Position numbers and translations under genes: made by a program
Part shown: in pieces, positions 261 to 17,505 of the stretch
Layout of the letters: each line of letters opens with the position of its first letter
Numbering within the stretch: position 1 is the stretch's first letter
From: a virus
Lineage: Duplodnaviria; Caudoviricetes
Direction: 5' to 3' (one strand)
Virus record (IMG/VR): IMGVR_UViG_3300028557_000047
Location: 1 to 55,019 of that record
Length of the DNA: 55,019 bases
Notes under the pieces: model-generated
Databases searched by the model: none
The model's input: only the letters and a program-made list of their open reading frames with translations
What the model was told of the DNA's origin: nothing

Positions 261-2290
261 TGGGGGTCACCGGACTAACTACGCTTGGGGCAGTTAATGC
301 CATCACCGCAAACGCGTCTGTCATTGTCAATGTTGGTGCAAATGTCCATGCCAATACTACTTCACTTAAAGTTGGTAATGCCACTGTAAATACTGTGGTG
401 ACTAGTGCTACTGTTACTGTAGCCAATTCGACCACCTCACTGGTAACCACTCCCGGCTCTGTTGCTACTGGTATTACTACTGTAAATACTACGGCGCTGA
501 GTGTTGGCGCGAATGTGGTAGCAAATAGTTCAGCCTTGGTTGTGGGTAACACTACGGTCGGTCACGTTACCGTATCAGTGGGCGCCAATGTGGTTTTAGA
601 AACATCTAGACTGGCGGTAGGTAATTCTACAACAAATACTATTATTTCACAGGCACAAGTTCACACTGATGGCAACTTAACGGTCGCAGGCACTACTACT
701 CTAAGTGGAGTAAATAATCTTAACGGTGCCACTACAGTTGCCAATACACTAGGTGTCACAGGACTAACTACACTTGTAAATGTGAATGCTGCCGTTGCAA
801 ACGCATCAACTATTGTGAACGTAGGCGCCAATGTTCATGCTAATACAACCTCACTTAAGGTTGGTAACTCAACTGTAAATACTGTTGTAACTGGGGCTCT
901 TACTACACTACAAGACGCAACTGGCTCGATCACCCTATCACCATCTGTGATTACCGCCGGGCTTGCTACTATTAACTCTACTGCAATCGCGGTTGGAGCA
1001 AATAATGTGTCTAATAGCTCTGCCGTGGTGGTAGGGAATACAGTACTAAGGCATACAACAGTCACAGTAGGTAGCAACGTATCACTGGATACAGCCGCGG
1101 TTCGAGTGGGCAACTCAACTGTGAATACTGTTATTTCTCAATCGTCAGTTTACACCGACGGCGCTATCACCGTGCAGGGTGCAGCAACAATTAATGGCAC
1201 AGTAACTCTAACTGCGCTTACCGCCGCCAATAATCTAACTGCTAACGTAGCTAACGCGGCGACAATTGTGAATGTCGGTGCCAATGTTCATGCTAATACT
1301 ACTTCACTCAAGGTAGGCAACTCTACCGTAAATACCGTAATTACATCTTCTACTACAAACGTATCAAACTCTACTGTCAATACGTTTATCACTGTAGGTT
1401 CTGGGCTATTTGGTAATTCTACGGCTAATGCTACTGTGAACTCATCCTCGTTCATGACACAGAGTTCAGCCACAGTTAATACTTCTATCACTCCTACTCA
1501 GATTAGAATTATTAATAGTTCTGGTAATGCAACCATCACACCTACTTCTATTACTGTAGGTCTGTTTACCGGCAATGCTACTTCAATGGCGGTCGGCGCC
1601 AATGTGGTTGCCAATACTACCTCGCTTGTCATCGGCGCTAACGTGTCTCTTGATGCCGCTGCGCTTCGCGTAGGAAACTCCACTGTCAACTCAGTCATCA
1701 CCTCGTCGTCATTATCTACTACTGGCACGCTTGGGGCCATTGGAGCAGCTACATTTAGCAATACTGTTGCGGTTACAGGCGCAGTTACACTCAGTAATAC
1801 ATCTAGCCACGTTGGCGCTGCTACTTTCTCCAATACCGTGGCGGTTACTGGCGCTGCCACATTCAGTAACACGGTTGCGGCCACGGGTGCCGCTACATTC
1901 AGCAATACCGTAACTGTTACTGGCAATGTCAATGCAAATGCTTCAGTTACCATCAATACCGACTACAGCATGATTGTTACTGCAAATACTAATGTCGGAT
2001 CAAATTCGGCGCCTAGAATTGTATTCAGTTTCCCTAAGGCCACATGGAAAGGCGCCAAGATCATTGCCATGGCCGACAACGCGGGAACAAATCAGATCAC
2101 AGAAATGGCAGTGGTGCACGATGGTACAACAGCTTGGTCTACTACATACGCAACAATCTCGTCTCCTGGCGGCGGTGAAACCGCTCTAGGAACTTACTCT
2201 TCACAGATAAATAATGCTAACGTAGAGATTTTACTCACTCAAGTTCTATCTGGCACCTCCGTTAAAATCATCAGTCACCTTATAAAGTAA
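1..2290 (+). CDS. Long Asn/Thr/Val-rich tail fibre / virion structural protein, 5'-truncated by the window
   Basis: Frame 2 is open from base 2, so the ATG at 260 is internal. Contains repeats AATFSNTVAVTG and VGANVHANTTSLKVGNST; C-terminal domain resembles that of the next gene. Confidence 0.75.
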   Translation, partial: NTVAVTGAATFSNTIAVTNTATFSNTVAVTGAATFSNTIAVTNTATFSNTVAVTGNATFSNTVAVTGAATFSNTIAVTGAATFSNTMGVTGLTTLGAVNAITANASVIVNVGANVHANTTSLKVGNATVNTVVTSATVTVANSTTSLVTTPGSVATGITTVNTTALSVGANVVANSSALVVGNTTVGHVTVSVGANVVLETSRLAVGNSTTNTIISQAQVHTDGNLTVAGTTTLSGVNNLNGATTVANTLGVTGLTTLVNVNAAVANASTIVNVGANVHANTTSLKVGNSTVNTVVTGALTTLQDATGSITLSPSVITAGLATINSTAIAVGANNVSNSSAVVVGNTVLRHTTVTVGSNVSLDTAAVRVGNSTVNTVISQSSVYTDGAITVQGAATINGTVTLTALTAANNLTANVANAATIVNVGANVHANTTSLKVGNSTVNTVITSSTTNVSNSTVNTFITVGSGLFGNSTANATVNSSSFMTQSSATVNTSITPTQIRIINSSGNATITPTSITVGLFTGNATSMAVGANVVANTTSLVIGANVSLDAAALRVGNSTVNSVITSSSLSTTGTLGAIGAATFSNTVAVTGAVTLSNTSSHVGAATFSNTVAVTGAATFSNTVAATGAATFSNTVTVTGNVNANASVTINTDYSMIVTANTNVGSNSAPRIVFSFPKATWKGAKIIAMADNAGTNQITEMAVVHDGTTAWSTTYATISSPGGGETALGTYSSQINNANVEILLTQVLSGTSVKIISHLIK

Positions 2291-2297
2291 AGATCAT

Positions 2298-3170
2298 ATG
2301 GCCGATACAAGATTCAAGGTAGAAAATGGACTGTTAGCAGTAGGAGGGGCTGGGAGTAGTTCTAGATTTGAACACCCTCTTACCGTTGCTGCCAACACTA
2401 CAATTGACGGAGACCTGCTATTGGTGCAGGGTAACTTTACCGTCGTTGGTAACACAATTTACCAGGGTGTTCTAAACTATGCAGCCGATCTTATTCCGAC
2501 TACCAATGGCACGTTAACAATTGGCACTTCCACCAACACCTATAACGGGCATTTTAATACCCTAATTAGCCATAGTGGAATCTTTCCGTTAGCAAATACC
2601 GTAGCACTAGGAAATACAAGCAGACGGTTTGAAGGCTTTGTAACTAATATTAATGCATCTGGCACTGGAACAATCACAGGCGCCGCAACATTCTCTAACA
2701 CAATTGTTGTTACGGGGAACGCACAGTTCTCTAATACAGTTGCTGTAACGGGTAATGCTACATTCTCTAATACAATTGCTGCCACTGGTGCTGCTACATT
2801 CTCTAATACAGTTACAGCAACCGGCGCCGTAACTACTCCTGCGGTCATTCTTACCAACGGCGGACTTTATTCCAATCAAGCTACAGTGTCCACTACTTCC
2901 CCAACCGTAGTTGATTCGTTCCCACTTGCCTCTGCTACTGGCGCAAGGTATACTGTTACCGCAAGACTTGCGGGTACTTCTAGACATGCAGTTGAACTTC
3001 TTACCGTTCACGAAGGCACCAATGTTCTTGCTACTCAATACGCAGAGATTTTTAATACCAGGCTTGGGGTGTTTGATATAAATATCAATGGCGCAAATGT
3101 TGAACTAACATTCACTCCTCTTACCGCCGTGGCTCATACCGTCAGAGTCATCCGCCAGCAGATACTATAA
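2298..3170 (+). CDS. Tail fibre-associated virion structural protein
   Basis: AATFSNT repeats; C-terminal domain (VVDSF..A.Y.V..H..ELL.VHEGT...TQY) similar to the upstream gene. Confidence 0.7.
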   Translation: MADTRFKVENGLLAVGGAGSSSRFEHPLTVAANTTIDGDLLLVQGNFTVVGNTIYQGVLNYAADLIPTTNGTLTIGTSTNTYNGHFNTLISHSGIFPLANTVALGNTSRRFEGFVTNINASGTGTITGAATFSNTIVVTGNAQFSNTVAVTGNATFSNTIAATGAATFSNTVTATGAVTTPAVILTNGGLYSNQATVSTTSPTVVDSFPLASATGARYTVTARLAGTSRHAVELLTVHEGTNVLATQYAEIFNTRLGVFDININGANVELTFTPLTAVAHTVRVIRQQIL

Positions 3171-3179
3171 GGATAACCA

Positions 3180-5309
3180 ATGGCTATCAATAATAATTTC
3201 AGGGCGGTACACGGGCTAGAGGCTAACGGGGCCGTAACTTTTGCTAATACGCTTGCCGTGACCGGTGGCTCTACCCTGTCTAATACACTGGCGGTGACTG
3301 GCGCAGCCACATTTAGCAATAACGTAACGATCGGTGGTAACTTTACCGTAACCGGCACTACCACCTACGTCAACACGGCTGTTCTTAATATTGCCGACAA
3401 TATTATGTCTCTTAATTCAGATGTTGTCGGAGCTCCTACGGAGAATTGCGGGCTGGAAGTTAACCGTGGCTCATCTGCTAACGTTTCATTTATCTGGAAT
3501 GAAACATCTGATAGATGGCAGATTACCAATGACGGTTCCACCTTCGGTAATGTGCACTCGACTTTAGCTTCTGTTGTGCTTGGAACTCATACTTCTGGCA
3601 ATTATGTAGGCACCGTGACCGCTGGTACTGGCGTCAGTTTATCTGGAGCTTCTGGCGCAAATGCTGCTCACTCCATTTCAATTGGGCAGAACGTAGATAC
3701 TACGGCTGCTGTTACATTCGGCCGCCTGACCGCTGGGGCCGGTAGCGCTAATAGTTCTGCAAACAGCACGGTTGTCCAGGTAGCCAACAGTACACTTTCT
3801 TCTCAGATGACTGCAGGAGGGTTTACGGCTGGTTCTACTACTATGACCGCATCTGGGTTCACTGGGAACTTAACCGGTACGTCATCCAACACTACCAATC
3901 TCAATGGGCAACCCGCTTCATTCTATTCAAACGCCACTAACCTAGCCACGGGCACGGTGCCTACTGCTAGACTTGCTACCTCTGGTACTGCAAACTCTAT
4001 TACATTTTTAGCGGGGGATCAAACTTGGAAAGTAGGGCCTCTAGGATACACCGGGTCTCAAGGAAACCAGGGTAACCAGGGGGTCATCGGCTTTACTGGA
4101 TCAACCGGCTTTACTGGATCGCAGGGCATTCAGGGCGCCACAGGAGCCACAGGCGGGCAAGGGCCCATCGGCTTTACTGGATCAACCGGCTTCACAGGTT
4201 CAACCGGCTTTACTGGATCGCAGGGCATTCAGGGCGCCACAGGAGCCACAGGCGGGCAGGGCCCCATCGGCTTTACTGGATCAACCGGCTTTACTGGATC
4301 GCAGGGCTCTCAAGGAATCCAGGGCAATCAAGGAATCCAGGGTAACCAAGGCAGCATCGGCCTCACAGGTTCAACCGGCTTTACTGGATCGCAGGGCATT
4401 CAGGGCAATCAAGGAATCCAGGGTAACCAAGGAATCCAGGGCAACACCGGCTTCACAGGTTCAACCGGCTTTACTGGATCGCAGGGCATTCAGGGCAATC
4501 AAGGAATCCAGGGTAACCAAGGAATCCAGGGCAACACCGGCTTTACTGGATCGCAGGGCATTCAGGGCGCCACAGGAGCCACAGGCGGGCAGGGTAACCA
4601 AGGCAGCATCGGCCTCACAGGTTCAACCGGCTTTACTGGATCAAGGGGATTCAAAGGAGATCTAGGAGACTCTGGCGTGGCCGGCGGAATAGGCCTCACT
4701 GGATCAACTGGATCAACTGGATTTACTGGTTCTAAAGGAGATACTGGCACCACTGGTACTCAAGGCGCCACTGGATTTACTGGTTCTAAAGGAGATACTG
4801 GCACCACTGGTACTCAAGGCGCCACCGGCTTTACTGGCTCTGGATATGGCACCGCGGCTAATGTTGAGATGAACTCTCTTGGAGTTGGTACTCCGGGCTC
4901 TGGTACTGCAGGTGAGATTCGTGCCACCAATAATATCACGGCATACTATTCCGATAGAAGGCTCAAGGAAAATATTGTATGCATTCCAGATGCGCTGGAT
5001 AAAGTTGACTCTATCAATGGAGTGACATTTACTTCTAACGATCTAGCCGAAACCTTTGGTTATCTGGATAAGTCTAGTCAGGTGGGTGTTATCGCGCAGG
5101 AAATTCAAGCGGTGCTGCCTCAAATCGTAGTACCGGCGCCATTTGACATTGGTCAGAATGAGGATGGCACTGAGTATAGCTTATCCGGTGAGAATTATGT
5201 AACCGTTCACTACGAAAAACTCATCCCGTTGCTTATCGAGGCGATCAAGGAACTTAGGGCAGACCTCCGCGAACTTGAAACTAAGGTGACCAACCATGGT
5301 GTCAATTAA
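3180..5309 (+). CDS. Tail fibre with collagen-like Gly-X-Y region and C-terminal intramolecular chaperone (Peptidase S74-like)
   Basis: GFTGSQG/GIQGNQ repeats; YYSDRRLKENI autocleavage motif; terminal YEKLIPLLIEAIKEL coiled coil. Confidence 0.85.
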   Translation: MAINNNFRAVHGLEANGAVTFANTLAVTGGSTLSNTLAVTGAATFSNNVTIGGNFTVTGTTTYVNTAVLNIADNIMSLNSDVVGAPTENCGLEVNRGSSANVSFIWNETSDRWQITNDGSTFGNVHSTLASVVLGTHTSGNYVGTVTAGTGVSLSGASGANAAHSISIGQNVDTTAAVTFGRLTAGAGSANSSANSTVVQVANSTLSSQMTAGGFTAGSTTMTASGFTGNLTGTSSNTTNLNGQPASFYSNATNLATGTVPTARLATSGTANSITFLAGDQTWKVGPLGYTGSQGNQGNQGVIGFTGSTGFTGSQGIQGATGATGGQGPIGFTGSTGFTGSTGFTGSQGIQGATGATGGQGPIGFTGSTGFTGSQGSQGIQGNQGIQGNQGSIGLTGSTGFTGSQGIQGNQGIQGNQGIQGNTGFTGSTGFTGSQGIQGNQGIQGNQGIQGNTGFTGSQGIQGATGATGGQGNQGSIGLTGSTGFTGSRGFKGDLGDSGVAGGIGLTGSTGSTGFTGSKGDTGTTGTQGATGFTGSKGDTGTTGTQGATGFTGSGYGTAANVEMNSLGVGTPGSGTAGEIRATNNITAYYSDRRLKENIVCIPDALDKVDSINGVTFTSNDLAETFGYLDKSSQVGVIAQEIQAVLPQIVVPAPFDIGQNEDGTEYSLSGENYVTVHYEKLIPLLIEAIKELRADLRELETKVTNHGVN
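4035..4850 (+). repeat. Collagen-like coding repeat array
   Basis: Many near-exact copies of ggctttactggatc and caaggaatccagggtaac. Confidence 0.9.
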
Positions 5310-5628
5310 AACTAAGTTGCGGATGGAACAGGGCGCTAATTTTAGTGCTACCGTTCCTGTGCTAGGAGATGATGGCTTACCATTCAATTTGACTGGGTAC
5401 ACTGGCGCAGCACAAGTAAGAAAACACTATTCGTCTTTGACCGCTTATACTTTTACTGTTGCTCTAGGCGGAAACACAGGCATAGTTACTTTAAGCATGA
5501 CTCCAGTACAAACTGGAGCTATTAGCCCTGGTATCCACGTATTTGACTGTGAAGTCACATCAGGAAATACTGTGTATCGCGTAGCCGAAGGGCAAGTACA
5601 TATAACCGCACAGGTTACTAAAGCTTAG
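5296..5628 (+). CDS. Small virion/baseplate-fibre adaptor protein (BppU-N-like)
   Basis: EQGANF...FNLTGYTGAAQVRKHYSS motif typical of T4-like structural proteins; position in fibre cluster. Confidence 0.6.
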   Translation: MVSIKTKLRMEQGANFSATVPVLGDDGLPFNLTGYTGAAQVRKHYSSLTAYTFTVALGGNTGIVTLSMTPVQTGAISPGIHVFDCEVTSGNTVYRVAEGQVHITAQVTKA

Positions 5629-5630
5629 TT

Positions 5631-8600
5631 TTAGCGCCGGATAAAGTAATAATCTCCGTCTGGCTTATCTACCTCGGTGAATTGACCTGCACACTCAAAG
5701 CCAATGCTATCCAGATATTCAATCACTTCTTCAGCTTTAGGCGCACCGACATTGTAGTCGGTTTTCTGTAGTTCAAGAAGTAGGTGGTTACACCCTTTCA
5801 GGGTTTCAGTTGCGCCTTTAAGCACATCGAGTTCCGCTCCCTGAATATCCATCTTGATCAAGTCGGGTGTTGGAAACTGATTCATCTTGCACACGCTATC
5901 AAGTGACATTCCGATCCGCTTCTTCTTATTCTCTTCTGGGAATAGAGTTGGAGCAAGAGGACTGAGTTCTGGGTTCTCTGTGTAATAACTATTTCCAGCC
6001 GGATCATGCGTGTTTTCGTTGAAGTCTAGTTCCGTGAAATCATTCTCGGTAAGCAGGCCTAGGTGATGATCGTAGTCGTTGTAAAGAAATCTAACCTCTG
6101 ACATTGCCTCAAATAGCACAAACTTGGATTCAGGCCATACCTTTTTAGCTTCGTTAGTCCAATGAAGAACACAAGAGCCAATGTCATAGATAACGGCAGG
6201 TTTGATCATGCCGCTAAGTTTTCTCAGGAACTCTATGTGGTCAAGTGGCAACATAGGAGTATCATGTAGAGCTTTGAGTCTTTGTCTCTCTGGAGACTCT
6301 GGAGCCGAAGCATTATCTTCAATACGGAACACCCGATCCCCGTGATGGTCACAAACAATCGTAACATCGCACCAAATACCATAACCTAGCTTGCGAGCTT
6401 TCATACAGAAGTCTAGGTCCTCACTGACTGTATTGGTATGATCTAGTGCCGAGTGATAGACAAACTGTGGATAGCCTACGGCTTTGAATACTTCAGACTT
6501 GATCAGAACACAGCCCAGCCCACAACCGCAAATCTCTACAAAAGACCATTGTTTAAGAGCCGCCCAGGGAATGTTATGGTGAAGATGATCATACACTTCA
6601 AGAATTTGTTCCTCTTTGCGCTGTCTATAAACTCCGGTTACAATAGGTTTATCATGCGCCAGTAGTTTTACCAGCGTATCCGGCGCAAATGCAATATCAT
6701 GATCCACAGAAAAAAGATAATCGTATGATCGAACGGTCCAGTCTGCAATGAGATTCCGAACTTGGTCTACGTTGTAGCCATAGAAATATTGAAAGTCAAC
6801 TTCATAGCCTTCCGGCACGATAAGATCATAGATTGATTTGAATGTTGCGACCTCAATATTTTTGGCGGTGGGAATTGCAATTAGTATCTTCTTATTTTTC
6901 ATAATCTTGCCCTTGGTTACAGCATTCACGGTTCTTGTTTGTTCGTCACTATTAATCTTATAGTCATTTATCGGATTCTTATCGTTGTAGTTATACACGA
7001 TATCAGGCACACATACGACTTTGTCTGGGTCAGCTAGTTCCAATAGAGTGTAAAAGACGGCGGTGTCTCCACCTGCTTTAAGCCATTTGTCATCCTTATC
7101 TTGGAACGCCGTATCATCTGGCACCAAGTTAAACAACTTGCCTTTAAATGTCCTCATATGAGTGTAAGGCATATGCCAGTTGAACTCATAGCTGCGGTAC
7201 GATTTGTTTCTTTTAATCTCTGGAGGATATGGCTGTGCAACTAGAGGAATGTTGTCAGCCATAGACCAACAAGAGCCGTATGTAAACTCAGCACCTTCGT
7301 CGTACAGGTTGTTGTACATATGGAAGATAGTTGGATCATTAACTAGAGTATCGTCTCCGTCAATGAGTATACAAATATCATCGCCATCTGGCTCAATATT
7401 GCGAAGGCTTGTTATCTGATTACATACAGCGCCGCGGTTGACGGTATTATTTATTAGGTGAAATTTGCTCTCTGTTTCCAAGTCAAGCGTGTTTAGTGCG
7501 TTGTTTATACGATCCCAAGTGGAATCAGTTGATGCATCATTAATAATTGTTACGTCATAGTTATCATAATCTTGGGCCGCAATAGACTTAATGCAATCCT
7601 CAATATAGTTCTCTGCGTTATAGACAGGAACGATAACGTGTATGCGCTTTTCTTTTGTCTTTGGTTGTAGTAGCTCCTCGGGGTTTAGATATCGGCGATT
7701 GAACACCGATCGTACCTTCTTATTAATAGCAGTCACCTTTCGGTATTCGTCAACTCGAAGATAGTTTCCCATCTTGTGATACAGATGTTGTTTCCATTGT
7801 AGGGCAACGGAATCCCAACCACAAATAGTGGCTACGTCCCCGCAGGCTTTTTGCTTTTCATCAAGCCTTGAGTAGTGGTATGCATCAATGACTAGATTAG
7901 CAAACTCTTGAGCTTGCCGATCGGCATCAAGCTCAGGTACTATCCAATTTGGTTCAACTGGGTACTTAAGTTTCCATGAGGCCGCGTCAATAGCGGTCTC
8001 TGATAGTCCGGCATAATCACAAGTGATGACCGGAGTATTGTAGTAGAGTGACTCAAGCACGGAAATACCAAACGTCTCAGGCTGATCACACGGATAGATC
8101 ATATAGGTGGAACTTGCCACCTCTTGTGCTACTTGCTTCGGGGTCAGTATTCCAGTGAACGTGATAGTATCATTGCAGGTAAGCTTTGATAGCCGATTGT
8201 ATTCTACTTCTTGTGCATCGGGACCGTGCGACTCGGCAAATTTGTAGTAGCCACCTAGAACTTTCAGTCGTGCGGTCGGAATGGCCGCTACTACTTTAGG
8301 CCAAATCTTTTCTACCAGAGGAGTCATACCTTTTGATACCGCAGAATTGAACACAAAGAGGTTGGGATCTTTTTTGGCGTGAGGAGAGATCTTGTGTCTA
8401 GCCATTCCATTTCTTGTGTGGAATTGTTTCTTCTTAAAGTTCTCTGACATTCTGTAGTGCCCATGATTGGCATTAGCAACATATGAACTGTGCCAGTCTG
8501 TCAGGGTGAATACCTCGTCTAGCCGATTTTCGTTCAGATATTGCTCGAGCAGACCATCGCCGTCCAGGAAGGTATCGTGCATCCATAAAGCTTTAAAGCC

Positions 8601-12678: not shown

Positions 12679-13073
12679 TGTCAACACTAGATAACGCACT
12701 AGGACTTACTCCATACAAACCAGAAAAACAAAGTCCTACACTAGTTCAAACTGAGAATGTAGATACGGTAGACTTTGATCATGCCAGGTCAACACTCTAT
12801 GATGTGCTCGAGGAAACCAAGTCCGCAGTAGATGAAATGATCGGCATTGCTAGCCAGTCTCAGCACCCAAAGTCATACGAAGTGCTCAATGGCATACTTA
12901 AGACTATGGCAGATGTAAGTATGAACTTAGTGGACTTGGATATAAAGCGACGTAAAGTGCTCGGTGCTACAGAAGCGGCCGCTGCTCCTGTGACAAATAA
13001 TCTGTTTGTCGGTAGCACTGCTGAGTTGCAAATGATGATTGCTCAGATGCAAGCAAGTAAAGATGAGCAGTGA
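12678..13073 (+). CDS. gp16: Terminase small subunit gp16
   Basis: HPKSYEVL and NNLFVGSTAEL motifs; lies before gp17. Confidence 0.9.
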   Translation: MSTLDNALGLTPYKPEKQSPTLVQTENVDTVDFDHARSTLYDVLEETKSAVDEMIGIASQSQHPKSYEVLNGILKTMADVSMNLVDLDIKRRKVLGATEAAAAPVTNNLFVGSTAELQMMIAQMQASKDEQ

Positions 13074-15339
13074 GTTTAAGGGCTACAATGGCAATCACAA
13101 TCTAAAGAAAGGCGGAGTTCAGATTGACTGGACTCCCGCCCTAGTACAAGAGTATCTAAAGTGTTCACAGGACCCAGTATACTTCTGTGAAACTTACATG
13201 AAGATCATTAACGTCGACGAAGGTCTAATCCCATTCGAGATGTATGATTACCAAAAGGAAATGATTACCAGTATGGCGGATAATCGCTATACTATTATCA
13301 CCACGGCTCGCCAGACCGGAAAATGTGTTGATGGGGGCACAAAGGTAGAAATTAAGTTTTTAGACTCTGGTTGGGCAAAGCTTTCTATTAGCACGATTCA
13401 TGAAATTAGTCTTTTTGTAAATAACTACAGGTTACGGTGGTTGCAGGAAGACGACTATAATGTTTTTAGAAAACAAGTATACATTTACTTATCTTCTATT
13501 GATGAGGAAGAGGCAAACGTATTTGATCGACTTTGGAGAGAAGCATCACATACTACCAAAGTCTCTTGGTGGGAGCAACTTACCAGAACATCTAGTTATA
13601 ATGAAAGCAGTCTGGGCGCTAAGGAAAGCGACAAAAAATTCATTGAGTCCTTCAGCCTAACCGGTTTTTATACTACATCAAGTGACGGTGTGGTTCCCAT
13701 TTCGGAATCCCACAAAACTATTGAATATAATGTCTGGGAACTAGTAACAGAAACAAAAACACTAAACGCAGCTGATATGCATATAGTGTTTTTGAAAAAT
13801 GATGTGCAAAAATTCATAAAAGACTTAATGTTAGGTGATGAAATCATTACTGACACTGGGTTAGAAAAGATTATATCAGTCACAAAGACAGCCCGTTCTG
13901 TTAATATGTATGATCTTGGTATTAATCATGAACAGCATCGCTATTATACCAATGGAATTTTATCCCATAACAGCACCACTACTTGCGGGTTTATTCTTTG
14001 GTACATTCTATTCCACTCTGAAAAAACGGTTGCTCTACTTGCAAACAAAGGCGATACCGCCCGAGAAATTCTAAGTAAGATTCAGCTTGCTTATGAGCAT
14101 CTACCCAAGTGGCTTCAGCAAGGTGTGCGCGAATGGAATAAGGGTTCGTTTGAATTAGAAAACAACTCCAGAGTTATTGCTACTGCCACCAGTGGCAACA
14201 ACATCCGTGGTTATGCCATTAACCTACTGTTCATCGACGAAGCCGCGTTTATTGCTAACTGGGAAGAATTCTTCACATCAGTACTACCTACTATCTCGTC
14301 CGGTAAGTCCACAAAAATTGTGCTTGTGTCTACTCCAAACGGGCTAAATCACTTCCATAAACTTTGGGCTGGTGCCAATGATGGGACCAATAACTTTAAT
14401 CCGATTAAGGTTATGTGGAGCGAAGTGCCGGGGAGAGATGAGACCTGGAAAAAAGATACTCTAGCAGCGATGGGTAACGATACGGAAAAGTTCAACCAAG
14501 AACACTGCTGTGAATTCCTAGGCAGTTCTGGCACTCTCATTGCTGGCTGGAAGCTAAAAGAACTGACTTTCAAACTCCCTCGACTTGCTGGGGAAGGTGT
14601 TTCTCAGTACGAAGCTCCAATCCCGGATAACAAATATGTAATGGTGTGTGATGTGTCACGAGGTAAGGGTCTTGACTATTCTGCATTTCAGTTGATCGAT
14701 ACCACTGCCATGCCTTACCGGCAAGTAATGGTTTACCGAAATAATCTAATTTCACCGATTGACTATGCCGAAGTGATCCATCGAATTGCAAAGACGTACA
14801 ACAATGCCGCCATTCTGGTGGAATCCAATGATATCGGGCAACAAGTTGCCGACACAATCTATCAAGAATATGAGTATGAAAATATCCTATTTACTGAGGG
14901 TGCTGGTAGGGCTGGTAAGAAAATCTCATCTGGCTTTAGTTCTGGGTCTGACATTGGCGTCCGAACCACAAAATCTGTTAAGGCGGTCGGATGTTCTATT
15001 CTCAAACTACTCATCGAACAGAACCAACTTATTCTTCGCGATCATCAAACTATTAAAGAAATATCTACGTTCTCAAAGAAAGCCAACTCATTCGAGGCCG
15101 AGTCTGGTTGTCACGATGATTTGGTCATGGGACTAGTACTATTTGCCTGGCTATCCGACCAGCAGTACTTTAAAGACATGACGGACATTAATACTCTCAT
15201 GCGACTAAGAGAAAAAACGGAAGATGAATGGGATAGAGAACTGATTCCGTTCGGCTTTATTGAAACCGGGCAAGAGGAACACGAAGATATAGTGGAACTT
15301 AAGCCTGGCGATACATTTGAGTCAAGACTGTGCGGCTAG
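13063..15339 (+). CDS. gp17: Terminase large subunit gp17, intein-containing
   Basis: Walker A ARQTGK/STT split by an intein; LFIDEAAF, VSTPNG, HDDLVM motifs. ATG at 13063 preferred over TTG at 13039. Confidence 0.95.
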   Translation: MSSEFKGYNGNHNLKKGGVQIDWTPALVQEYLKCSQDPVYFCETYMKIINVDEGLIPFEMYDYQKEMITSMADNRYTIITTARQTGKCVDGGTKVEIKFLDSGWAKLSISTIHEISLFVNNYRLRWLQEDDYNVFRKQVYIYLSSIDEEEANVFDRLWREASHTTKVSWWEQLTRTSSYNESSLGAKESDKKFIESFSLTGFYTTSSDGVVPISESHKTIEYNVWELVTETKTLNAADMHIVFLKNDVQKFIKDLMLGDEIITDTGLEKIISVTKTARSVNMYDLGINHEQHRYYTNGILSHNSTTTCGFILWYILFHSEKTVALLANKGDTAREILSKIQLAYEHLPKWLQQGVREWNKGSFELENNSRVIATATSGNNIRGYAINLLFIDEAAFIANWEEFFTSVLPTISSGKSTKIVLVSTPNGLNHFHKLWAGANDGTNNFNPIKVMWSEVPGRDETWKKDTLAAMGNDTEKFNQEHCCEFLGSSGTLIAGWKLKELTFKLPRLAGEGVSQYEAPIPDNKYVMVCDVSRGKGLDYSAFQLIDTTAMPYRQVMVYRNNLISPIDYAEVIHRIAKTYNNAAILVESNDIGQQVADTIYQEYEYENILFTEGAGRAGKKISSGFSSGSDIGVRTTKSVKAVGCSILKLLIEQNQLILRDHQTIKEISTFSKKANSFEAESGCHDDLVMGLVLFAWLSDQQYFKDMTDINTLMRLREKTEDEWDRELIPFGFIETGQEEHEDIVELKPGDTFESRLCG
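13324..13971 (+). mobile_element. 216-aa intein in the terminase Walker A motif
   Basis: Begins CVDGGT, has block B-like AADMHIVF and block F MYDL, ends NGILSHN followed by Ser(+1). Excision restores RQTGKSTT. Confidence 0.93.
13460..13660 (+). pseudogene. Degenerate HNH homing-endonuclease ORF in the +1 frame inside the intein
   Basis: MFLENKYT...EKHHILPKSLGGSN..HLV motif; AGGA at 13445-13448 upstream; lacks the downstream EHxxxH helix. Confidence 0.7.
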
Positions 15340-15360: not shown

Positions 15361-15368
15361 TATAAATA
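15361..15368 (+). promoter_or_regulatory. Late promoter for gp18
   Basis: TATAAATA. Confidence 0.85.
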
Positions 15369-15405: not shown

Positions 15406-17505
15406 ATGGCGGTTTCTAATTTTGGCTCAGGTGGAGGTGGATTCCAGGTCAGCCCAGGCATCAACATCAGCGAAATTGATATCACTAGCGTAGTTCCAGC
15501 AGTTTCATCTACTGTTGGTGCCATCGGCGGCGTATTTCGTTGGGGCCCGGTTGACAAACTACAACTAGTTGACTCAGAAAACTCACTGGCTATTCTATAT
15601 GGCAAGCCTTCGAACCTAAACTCAGAAACCTGGTTCACCGCTGCCAGCTTTCTTTCATATAGCAATGCGCTCTATGTCAGCCGCGCTAAGGACGTTTCGC
15701 TTCTATCAGCTGTAGCCGGGACCGGCCTTTCCACTTCAAATTCTGCTCATACCGTTCTCAATTCAGACGATCATGAAGCAAAACAAGCCACATTCGATGC
15801 CGCCGTGGACTATGTTGCTCGTTACCCTGGCGCTCTTGGCAATACGCTTAAAGTTTCCGTTTGTGACTCAGCCGCTCAATATAGTTCAAATGTTAATCTA
15901 GGCACCGTCGGAAGCAACACACTATTTGGCAATGCTGCAACTAAGCTAACACTAGCCGTAGGCAGCAACACTGCTCAGGTTGTTCTTGCAAACACAGGCG
16001 CACTTGTTAATGATAACTCTGCGCCATATGCAATTACTGTTAAGGCCCAATTCACTGTCGGTGATGTAATCACAGTTGGTAATAGCACCATCGGCACACA
16101 AACAATTAAGATCACGGGCCTAGGTGAAACCAGCACCACTGTATATGCCAACGGATCAAATCTGCCCGCTGGTTATGCTGCATTTTCCGTATCACTTGAT
16201 CAGCCTCTAAAACTTGCCGGTGCGGTTGATACCGTGACCGTCCCTCGTTTCTGGGAATACTTTAACCAAGTCAACCAAGCCCCAGGGAAGTCCGAATTCC
16301 AGAATTCATACGGCACCAATGTCAATGACGAACTTCACGTAGTTGTTGCTGACGAGGACGGCCTATTTACAGGCAATCCCGGCACCGTGCTAGAAGTCTA
16401 CGCAGGTCTATCACGCGCAACTGATGCCAAGCTATCAGATGGTGGCACAAACTATTACAAGAATGTTATCAATAGCCGGTCACAGTTTATTTGGTTTGCA
16501 TCAGATCGTGCGCTAGCCACCTCCGCGGCCGCCGCATCCCTTACTGCATCTACAAATACGGTTCCTCTGACCCTATCTTTTGTCGGCGGAGTTGATACTG
16601 CCACAGAAGATGCTATTCTGTTTGGTGGCCTAGCGACTGCTTATGACCTCTTTGCTACCACCGCCGGCATCGATATCTCACTTCTCATGACCGGTAAGTC
16701 AAGAGGCGGTTCAACTGGAGAGCAGCTAGGTAACTATCTCATCGACAATGTTGCCGAGGTTCGCAAGGATTGTATTGTGTTTGTCTCACCAAGACGGGAA
16801 GCGGTTGTTAATAACCCCATCACCGCCGCAGCAGACATTGTTGCCATGAGAAACAACATGAGATCATCTTCATATGGAGTCATGGATAGCGGCTACAAGT
16901 ACATTTATGACAAGTACAATGATCTGTATCGCTACATTCCGCTAAACGGTGACATTGCCGGTCTCTGTGTTCGCACCGACGCTAATCGTGACCCATGGTT
17001 CTCACCTGCCGGTATCAATCGCGGGCAGATCAAGAATAGCATCAAGCTATCTTATAACCCATCAAAGGCCGATCGTGACGTTCTATACAAGTCAAGCGTT
17101 AACCCAGTCGTAACACAGCCTGGCTATGGCAGCATGCTGTTCGGTGATAAGACACTTCTCTCAAAGCCAAGCGCCTTTGATCGTATCAATGTTCGTCGCC
17201 TATTCATTGTTCTTGAGAAAGCCGTTGCAAATGCGGCTCAATCCACAATCTTTGAATTCAACGATGAGTTCACCCGCACTCAGTTCCGCAACCTAATCGA
17301 GCCTTTCCTACGGGATATTCAGGGCCGTCGGGGTATCTATGACTATAAGGTGGTTTGTGATGAAACAAACAACACCGCCGAGGTCATTGACGGTAACCGA
17401 TTCGTAGGTGACATTTATGTCAAGCCCGCCAAGTCAATCAATTACATTCAACTGAACTTCGTTGCTGTCAGAAGTGGCATTGAGTTCTCCGCCATTGTCG
17501 GCTAA
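15406..17505 (+). CDS. gp18: Tail sheath protein gp18
   Basis: SPGINISEID, PWFSPAG, FDRINVRRLF motifs. Confidence 0.96.
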   Translation: MAVSNFGSGGGGFQVSPGINISEIDITSVVPAVSSTVGAIGGVFRWGPVDKLQLVDSENSLAILYGKPSNLNSETWFTAASFLSYSNALYVSRAKDVSLLSAVAGTGLSTSNSAHTVLNSDDHEAKQATFDAAVDYVARYPGALGNTLKVSVCDSAAQYSSNVNLGTVGSNTLFGNAATKLTLAVGSNTAQVVLANTGALVNDNSAPYAITVKAQFTVGDVITVGNSTIGTQTIKITGLGETSTTVYANGSNLPAGYAAFSVSLDQPLKLAGAVDTVTVPRFWEYFNQVNQAPGKSEFQNSYGTNVNDELHVVVADEDGLFTGNPGTVLEVYAGLSRATDAKLSDGGTNYYKNVINSRSQFIWFASDRALATSAAAASLTASTNTVPLTLSFVGGVDTATEDAILFGGLATAYDLFATTAGIDISLLMTGKSRGGSTGEQLGNYLIDNVAEVRKDCIVFVSPRREAVVNNPITAAADIVAMRNNMRSSSYGVMDSGYKYIYDKYNDLYRYIPLNGDIAGLCVRTDANRDPWFSPAGINRGQIKNSIKLSYNPSKADRDVLYKSSVNPVVTQPGYGSMLFGDKTLLSKPSAFDRINVRRLFIVLEKAVANAAQSTIFEFNDEFTRTQFRNLIEPFLRDIQGRRGIYDYKVVCDETNNTAEVIDGNRFVGDIYVKPAKSINYIQLNFVAVRSGIEFSAIVG

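Follow-up and report, generated by a model that had tools for sequence, protein, structure and literature searches.

A decayed Mob-like HNH homing endonuclease gene in the +1 frame of a terminase intein from a T4-like lake phage

An intein endonuclease encoded in a reading frame other than that of its intein was first proposed by Gorbalenya in 1998, as cited in the preprint bioRxiv 10.64898/2026.09.14.751524, whose main text describes cyanobacterial dnaX inteins with an out-of-frame LAGLIDADG gene. The main text of a second preprint (bioRxiv 10.1101/2025.01.02.630785) describes actinophage inteins, some of them in the large terminase subunit (TerL), that contain an endonuclease VII-like gene in frame 3 or, on the antisense strand, LAGLIDADG or VSR-like genes; it proposes that free-standing genes invaded such inteins and that invasion leads more often to a split intein. 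The locus described here lies in the TerL gene of the viral record IMGVR_UViG_3300028557_000047 (IMG/VR), the whole 55,019 base pairs (bp) of which were analysed and are called the window. The gene is interrupted by a contiguous intein, and the +1 frame of this intein contains the remnant of a Mob-like HNH homing endonuclease gene. The locus is very probably a decaying composite selfish element, in which a TerL intein was invaded by an out-of-frame, free-standing Mob-like gene of the HNH+NUMOD3 type. The first-pass annotation, made from the sequence alone, had taken this architecture to be undescribed, and that claim does not hold, since intein endonucleases in another frame or on the other strand are in print in the two preprints. 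The architecture itself is already reported, if rare; the HNH type, the N-proximal site and the link to split inteins appear to be new.

As in these non-canonical inteins, to the extent that the main texts describe them, the splicing domain overlaps a separately encoded endonuclease, the intein frame is open and decay to mini-inteins is expected. The present cases differ in the nuclease, which is Mob-like HNH+NUMOD3 and in one relative (L041) DUF559/Vsr-like on the sense strand, in the host, a T4-like phage from a lake metagenome, and in the position of the gene 5' of intein block B. The main texts of the preprints give HNH only as an in-frame domain, and their supplements may hold further cases. 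Literature searches covering main texts and not supplements returned neither an out-of-frame HNH+NUMOD3 gene in an intein nor a contiguous intein with a nuclease gene at its N-proximal site. The locus and its relatives add T4-like aquatic phages, new nuclease types and a new intein position to an architecture only recently documented in actinophages and cyanobacteria.

Other described systems share parts of this arrangement. The 'Terminase' fractured gene of Dassa et al. 2009 has, in the description given in PMC2677866, an unusual split point and a C part of 122 residues with all N motifs but N1, and the same source describes the Aeh1 mobE gene as splitting nrdA. AceL-TerL, GOS-TerL and the Cat consensus are listed as atypical split inteins in a review (PMC11766414). 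The present family resembles these, as they are described there, in its myovirus gp17-type host, in the break just after motif N1, and in the short N part and C part of about 120 amino acids (aa), whereas the window intein is contiguous and occupies one open frame. A hidden HNH gene in another frame of an open host open reading frame (ORF) is also featured in the ShiLan-type arrangement, an out-of-frame HNH inserted in a phage DNA methylase (PMC11855218); in the account given there no splicing domain was found, while the carrier here is a recognisable intein.

The TerL ORF (13039..15339) is broken exactly at 13324-13971 by an open insert of 216 aa, CVDGG...GILSHN/STT (the slash marks a junction). 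The N-terminal nucleophile is a Cys at 13324, directly 3' of RQTGK and invariant in all 8 aligned inteins, and the C-terminal junction GILSHN/S lies at 13954-13974, with H215 and N216 invariant and Ser+1 at 13972. Block B is present as A-D-M-H with an invariant H153, where Ala stands instead of Thr, likewise in the aligned VidaL intein, and the C-terminal blocks align to the VidaL and gp41-1 inteins. The alignment of the window intein with 7 relatives contains 41 invariant columns, C1, H153, H215 and N216 among them. The family profile matches the solved inteins VidaL (6vgv, E=1.8e-11), an intein of the atypically split kind, and gp41-1 (E=1.7e-4). Foldseek analysis of the AlphaFold2 model (mean predicted local distance difference test score, pLDDT, 76.5) returned 12 matches at E<=0.001, and all matches listed are inteins (VidaL, 4.7e-5). 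The insert is identified as an intein because of the invariant motifs, the profile matches and the best Foldseek matches, all of them inteins; the Pfam Intein_splicing model scores 16.1 bits, below its cut-off of 35.8. Excision of the predicted intein would restore the Walker A motif RQTGK-STT. The intein frame is open, as the first-pass annotation had stated, and Pfam analysis of the window TerL ORF identified no in-frame endonuclease domain. A group I or II intron was rejected, with 0 Rfam matches at E<=1 on L001, L003 and L006.

The ORF in the +1 frame, open from stop to stop over 13421..13657, is present with the ATG and AGGA that had been proposed for it. Residues 3-47 of its 66-aa product match PHROG 655 'homing endonuclease' with E=1.7e-8, and in a scan of the whole record, where this match has E=1.7e-9, it is the sole nuclease-family match in 55 kb. 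The tblastn search against phages matched 788 records (best E=1e-5); 27 of the 40 matches listed fall under homing, mobile or Mob-type endonuclease genes, and the others are unannotated or 'hypothetical protein'. The Pfam HNH_5 model gives E=0.005 and 17.1 bits, below its cut-off of 27.5. The profile and tblastn matches bear out the assignment of this peptide to the HNH homing endonuclease type. The remnant is located between block A and the block-B His, so block B lies 3' of it, and it falls outside the canonical endonuclease region after block B, again as first described.

Residues 1-47 of the remnant are homologous to the N-terminus of intact genes in relatives of the intein, and the gene end overlaps the intein's conserved KKFIESF. 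The Y, Y, E28, HH, P and GG residues of the family are retained; His stands at N45 and L49, E53, H54 and H58 are gone, so the catalytic HNH motif is incomplete, in agreement with the earlier view that this copy is decayed and lacks its EHxxxH helix. Pfam analysis found no NUMOD3 repeats in the 66 aa. Compared with L003 and L006, the two relatives described below, the window copy is missing approximately 560-690 nucleotides (nt), and the deletion preserved both frames. The window nuclease is dead because the deletion took the latter half of the HNH motif along with every DNA-binding repeat, and the window copy thereby represents the mini-intein stage that the homing cycle is expected to include. 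The final 18 or so codons of the +1 ORF were considered as the gene's own C-terminus, an assignment that is secure only where they overlap KKFIESF.

A search with the intein region identified 133 related proteins, and figures given for relatives refer to the best 120 of these 133. Proteins P0001-P0006 contain the same intein at 344-441 aa, with a stretch rich in K, R, S, T and E exactly at the position of the window remnant. In L003 (intein 1475..2689) a nuclease gene of 254 aa lies at 1608..2369, and in L006 (intein 2028..3350) one of 286 aa lies at 2161..3018; both are complete in the +1 frame with their own ATG and their own stop. The L003 intein DNA is identical in L004, L005 and L016-L019, which amount to 4 distinct contigs. 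The claim that a free-standing HNH gene entered an intein in another frame while the intein frame stayed open is supported mainly by these two relatives. Both products match PHROG 655 (E=7.5e-34 for L003 and 2.3e-43 for L006) and, above the Pfam cut-off, NUMOD3 (E=1.1e-7 and 5.7e-14), and they contain every near-invariant residue of the family (Y8, Y12, E28, H30, H31, P34, G38, G39, N45, L49, E53, H54 and H58). The tblastn search with the nuclease frame against phages matched 827 records (best E=1e-18), and 29 of the 40 matches listed are homing, HNH, Mob-like or 'endonuclease', the others being 'hypothetical protein'. The AlphaFold2 model of the L003 nuclease has pLDDT >=95 over residues 1-80, with a strand-strand-helix at 28-63; its best HNH rows in Foldseek are Cas8f-HNH at E of about 1 and probability 0.54-0.60, and a sequence search of the PDB with this nuclease returned only E>=0.06.

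These genes share the catalytic motif ..Y..Y...E.HHI.P..GG...N.V.L..REH..AH and NUMOD3 with the free-standing Mob-type HNH genes of T4-like phages, such as the RB16 Mob-like gene and phiM19 MobE, and free-standing Mob-like genes are 29-34% identical to the L003 gene over 79-94% of its length. Unlike those genes, which stand between or beside host genes, they are embedded in an intein, and the window retains only about the first 47 codons and the gene end. A third intact gene is found in L041 (protein P0040), where this site in a 451-aa intein from the same family is occupied by a DUF559/Vsr-like gene of 313 aa, also in the +1 frame. Upstream of the nuclease ATG, the motif TATAAATA, which is taken here to be the T4 late-promoter motif, stands 41 nt 5' in L003 and 13 nt 5' in L006, and GGAG stands 6 nt 5' of the L003 ATG. 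The window has TGTAAATA about where L003 has TATAAATA relative to the nuclease ATG. It is probably the decayed promoter of the nuclease gene, as judged from its letters and position, and is presumably homologous to the motifs at L003 1567 and L006 2148, a correspondence based on position and not on alignment. Hidden nuclease genes of this kind are systematically missed because the long TerL ORF is all that gene callers report; a search of a collection of 5.8 billion proteins returned 57, of which the best is 61% identical and none is the L003 nuclease itself.

The intein frame contains 0 stops over the 762 nt of the L003 gene and 0 over the 858 nt of the L006 gene. When synonymous codons of the nuclease were shuffled, 0 of 5000 sequences were stop-free for either gene, with means of 13.6 and 15.0 stops and minima of 4 and 5 for L003 and L006 respectively. 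The same relative frame of five free-standing homologues used as controls (RB16 Mob-like, Klebsiella GF, phiWae14, CAU_YEP3 and phiM19 MobE) contains 21-29 stops. L041 behaves alike: its intein frame is free of stops over 939 nt, which none of 5000 shuffles reproduced (mean 22.8, minimum 8). The intein frame of these relatives is under selection to remain open. Between L003 and L006, the same aligned nucleotides give 48.4% identity in the nuclease frame and 22.6% in the intein frame, and it is therefore the nuclease that is under purifying selection, whereas in the intein frame only openness is maintained. The intein-frame product of the 3' two-thirds of the gene consists of 69-72% K/R/E/S/T/N/Q/G/P/D.

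For the surviving 5' part, the first-pass annotation had described the intein-frame translation over the remnant as non-conserved, and the intein as splicing out a junk loop; the peptide aligns among 7 of the 8 sequences, and AlphaFold2 models helices at residues 22-39, 45-59, 61-73 and 76-88, with pLDDT of 80-96 for residues 41-80 and below 50 for residues 90-105. The first description is wrong, and the second is not supported for this part. It could be supposed that the segment is useful in itself, with the intein-frame helices (residues 22-88 or so) contributing to the structure or regulation of the intein, or with a function for the 66-aa +1 peptide, and the modelled helices, the alignable segment and the fact that the deletion spared it would fit this. 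The conservation may however be a by-product of the nuclease catalytic core in the other frame: over 46 codons the nuclease-frame identity of the remnant is 63% with L003 and 56.5% with L006, against 43% and 39% in the intein frame. The mini-intein P0007/L002 lacks any segment overlapping the remnant altogether, and the model was built from 8 sequences only. The sole polymorphism, a T for C at 13488 in run X7 (a single observation), leaves the intein-frame protein unaltered and replaces Thr with Ile in the +1 peptide. A use for the retained part is improbable on this evidence. The -1 frames of the free-standing homologues contain many stops, and their resemblance to the helical peptide is confined to the surroundings of the HH codons; the helical insert (13324-13590, residues 22-88 approximately) may be a de novo fold, or may be an artefact of a shallow alignment of 8 sequences combined with conservation in the other frame.

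A second alternative is that the nuclease was first an in-frame HNH domain and that two compensating frameshifts turned the +1 signal into a relic of decay. In-frame HNH domains are known in phage inteins from the main text of bioRxiv 10.1101/2025.01.02.630785, and the window copy is indeed decayed. Against this, the entire gene of L003 and L006 is in the +1 frame, with a Met aligned to the start of the free-standing homologues and its own stop; it is preceded by TATAAATA and is the more conserved of the two frames. The genes nearest to it in sequence are free-standing and Mob-like. Among the 120 relatives listed, 0 showed an in-frame HNH in an hmmsearch with the nuclease profile, the sole match being the NUMOD3 repeats in the downstream GIY-YIG-like part of P0006. 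A history of two frameshifts is accordingly very unlikely. An artefact of assembly, such as an indel, or a chance ORF in AT-rich DNA can be set aside almost entirely: short ORFs are common in such DNA and G+C is 36% in the region and 45% in the window, yet the contigs of runs X7, X8 and X9, none of which is flagged as a possible source of the record, contain no indels over 13100-14200, the same frame relation occurs in the independent assemblies L003 and L006, and the HNH-type profile match to the +1 peptide has E of 1.7e-8 to 1.7e-9. The contigs of run X7 end at 13588 and 13602, near the deletion junction, at a depth of 3-7 and with other breaks elsewhere, and nothing is drawn from this.

Invasion by a free-standing, out-of-frame nuclease gene can be described as a series of steps. 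An ancestral intein in the Walker A loop of the essential TerL of a lake T4-like phage would have been invaded by an HNH+NUMOD3 cassette, which would have landed in the loop that follows the intein's first beta-hairpin and helix, 5' of block B, bringing its own start codon, stop codon and late promoter. As the cassette is in the +1 frame, a ribosome translating TerL would read through it in the intein frame. Selection keeps this frame stop-free, and the extra peptide would leave with the intein at splicing. The nuclease would be made separately by internal initiation and would presumably cut intein-less TerL alleles of co-infecting phages, after which repair would copy the intein and the nuclease gene together. 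In the window, a deletion preserving both frames and a mutated promoter motif have left a dead nuclease in an element turning into a mini-intein.

Several points weigh against this interpretation. Splicing, separate translation of the +1 gene and the cleavage target are inferred steps; the 15 runs listed include no RNA run, which speaks neither for nor against expression. Only 3 independent DNA sequences have an intact overprinted gene (the L003 type, L006 and L041), and out-of-frame genes are assumed for P0001, P0002, P0003, P0005, P0017 and P0054 from the similarity of their intein-frame proteins, their DNA being absent from the scanned collections. For the L003 nuclease, the Pfam HNH models stay below their cut-offs (HNH_5 E=0.0097, HNH E=0.032) and the 254-aa model has no Foldseek match in the PDB at E<=0.001; a wide VIA-align search gave Z<=6.1 with generic helical matches, and neither structure search is evidence against an HNH fold. 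In the window, the AGGA-ATG spacing of 11 nt is longer than optimal, TATAAATA is missing, the confident helices modelled over the remnant do not fit pure junk, and at about 60% DNA identity the right breakpoint of the deletion is not resolved by global or local DNA alignments.

The wider family of the intein includes split forms. Among the 120 relatives listed, 9 have long contiguous inteins (>=300 aa) and 36 short contiguous inteins; another 52 are proteins starting 115-149 aa before the C junction, which are either C halves split just after motif N1 or truncated genes, and 23 fit none of these patterns. The split loci L007-L014 and L021-L032 have N parts of approximately 38-47 aa and are split at the point homologous to the nuclease site. 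In three of them (L008, L022 and L023) a homologue of the L041 nuclease (44% identical, E=7e-74) is encoded as a free-standing gene between the intein halves, and the intein frame there contains 61-64 stops. The family profile gives E=0.12 with the Cat consensus 6dsl, and Foldseek gives 5e-3; orthology with AceL-TerL and GOS-TerL is suggested by their descriptions and not by their sequences. The nuclease site is apparently the break point of the atypical split TerL inteins used in biotechnology.

These observations lead to a tentative proposal, plausible if somewhat short of probable, that the loop after N1 is a landing site for free-standing endonuclease genes, with two stable outcomes: read-through, in which stops are purged from the intein frame to give a cis-splicing, dual-coding element (L003, L006, L041 and the ancestor of the window), or breakage into the atypically split form of the AceL-TerL type (L008 and others). 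The window would then be the last stage, in which the nuclease gene is deleted and a de novo, possibly folded helical insert is left. If this is true, nature offers one intein with one nuclease family in both a read-through and a split version, on which the gene-breaking model of split-intein origin can be tested directly. Mini, read-through and split forms occur in one family, and a read-through and a split intein stand side by side in one gene (L005). They provide natural material on the origin of split inteins, the tolerance of a loop to long inserts and the stop-free upkeep of overlapping genes.

The L005 TerL that contains the read-through intein terminates in a short N fragment of an intein as well, after ...AQEF/CISGDTK (L005 3900-5889). 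This fragment is followed by a free-standing ORF of 209 aa (4160-4789) starting MFYVYKITRFDGLSYIGITK, which looks GIY-YIG-like and is presumed to be of that type. The intein C part is fused to the TerL C-terminus (4762-5889) and overlaps the 209-aa ORF by 28 nt. L005 is a classical 'fractured gene' beside an overprinted one, in the same phage type as L003. In L006/P0006 (residues 590-959 or so), CVTGDAK... after ...SIRGLSMN resembles the N part of a second intein in the Walker B region, for which L033 and L034 may be compared, and it is followed in frame by a SegE-like GIY-YIG region (E=3.3e-4, below cut-off) and NUMOD3 (above cut-off). A site in the Walker B region is also seen as ...SLLY/CLDG... 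in L007, L013, L014, L021 and L030. At 2063-3720 of L007 the intein C part, together with the beginning of the TerL C-extein, occurs twice in tandem, in near-identical copies that lie in different frames. The upstream copy runs on into divergent TerL sequence, and the duplication may be a scar of recombination or homing. The N-part ORFs of L009, L013 and L026-L030 extend into short Cys-rich tails (e.g. ...CKHCSVEF...) between the split halves, where there is no full nuclease gene and the intein frame has 7-9 stops. The tails are probably remnants of a lost nuclease gene.

Mini-intein matches in the TerL of cultured Ackermannviridae, Campylobacter and Vibrio phages number 309 records. In the three records inspected (Serratia 2050H1, Vibrio VP-1 and Dickeya LIMEstone1) the match is likewise inside the annotated TerL gene, with 33-46% identity over the C-terminal 52-94% of the window intein; unlike the window, these have one contiguous TerL gene annotated with no nuclease gene inside. 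LIMEstone1 (L044 1252-2136) has an annotated free-standing homing endonuclease, F-LimIX, between the TerS (small terminase subunit) and TerL genes, and F-LimIX and the TerL intein could co-operate in homing.

The window has an estimated completeness of approximately 31% and contains a structural module in T4 order, encoding head closure, sheath stabiliser, TerS, TerL, tail sheath, tube, portal and major head proteins. The features of the TerL locus are listed in Table 1. The TerL start is probably the ATG given there, as suggested by the N-termini of the relatives; the mechanical ORF start is the TTG at 13039. The precursor is 758 aa long, or 542 aa with the intein taken out, and the Pfam domains Terminase_6N (E=6.9e-16) and Terminase_6C (E=1.2e-12) both lie only 3' of the insert, after residue 311.

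Table 1. Features of the TerL locus in the window
Feature	Coordinates	Strand	Basis or remark
TerL (T4 gp17-like) precursor gene	13063..15339	+	ORF, Pfam, T4 gene order of neighbours
Contiguous class-1-type intein, 216 aa	13324..13971	+	Between Lys and Ser of Walker A (RQTGK/STT)
TGTAAATA, 1 mismatch from T4-type late-promoter motif TATAAATA	13416..13423	+	Sequence read
Shine-Dalgarno-like AGGA	13445..13448	+	11 nt 5' of +1-frame ATG
Mob-like HNH homing endonuclease gene remnant	13460..13660	+	+1 frame relative to intein; 66 codons and stop
Zone with internal-deletion junction	13597..13632	+	Left homology ends 13587-13596; secure right homology from 13633
Intein block B region NAADMHIVF with conserved His	13765..13791	+	A150, D151, H153, I154 and F156 invariant in alignment
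Intein C-terminal blocks NMYDLGI...HRYYTNGILSHN	13900..13971	+	M195-G199, H205, R206, Y208 and I212-N216 invariant

The motif TATAAATA has 10 matches in the window against 2.5 expected, and 0 of 100 shuffles reached 10. The sites include 10273, 15361, 23926, 24992, 26408, 38425 and 44579. In several cases the motif is located just 5' of an ORF start, as at 15361 before the ORF at 15406, which is expected for T4-type late promoters.

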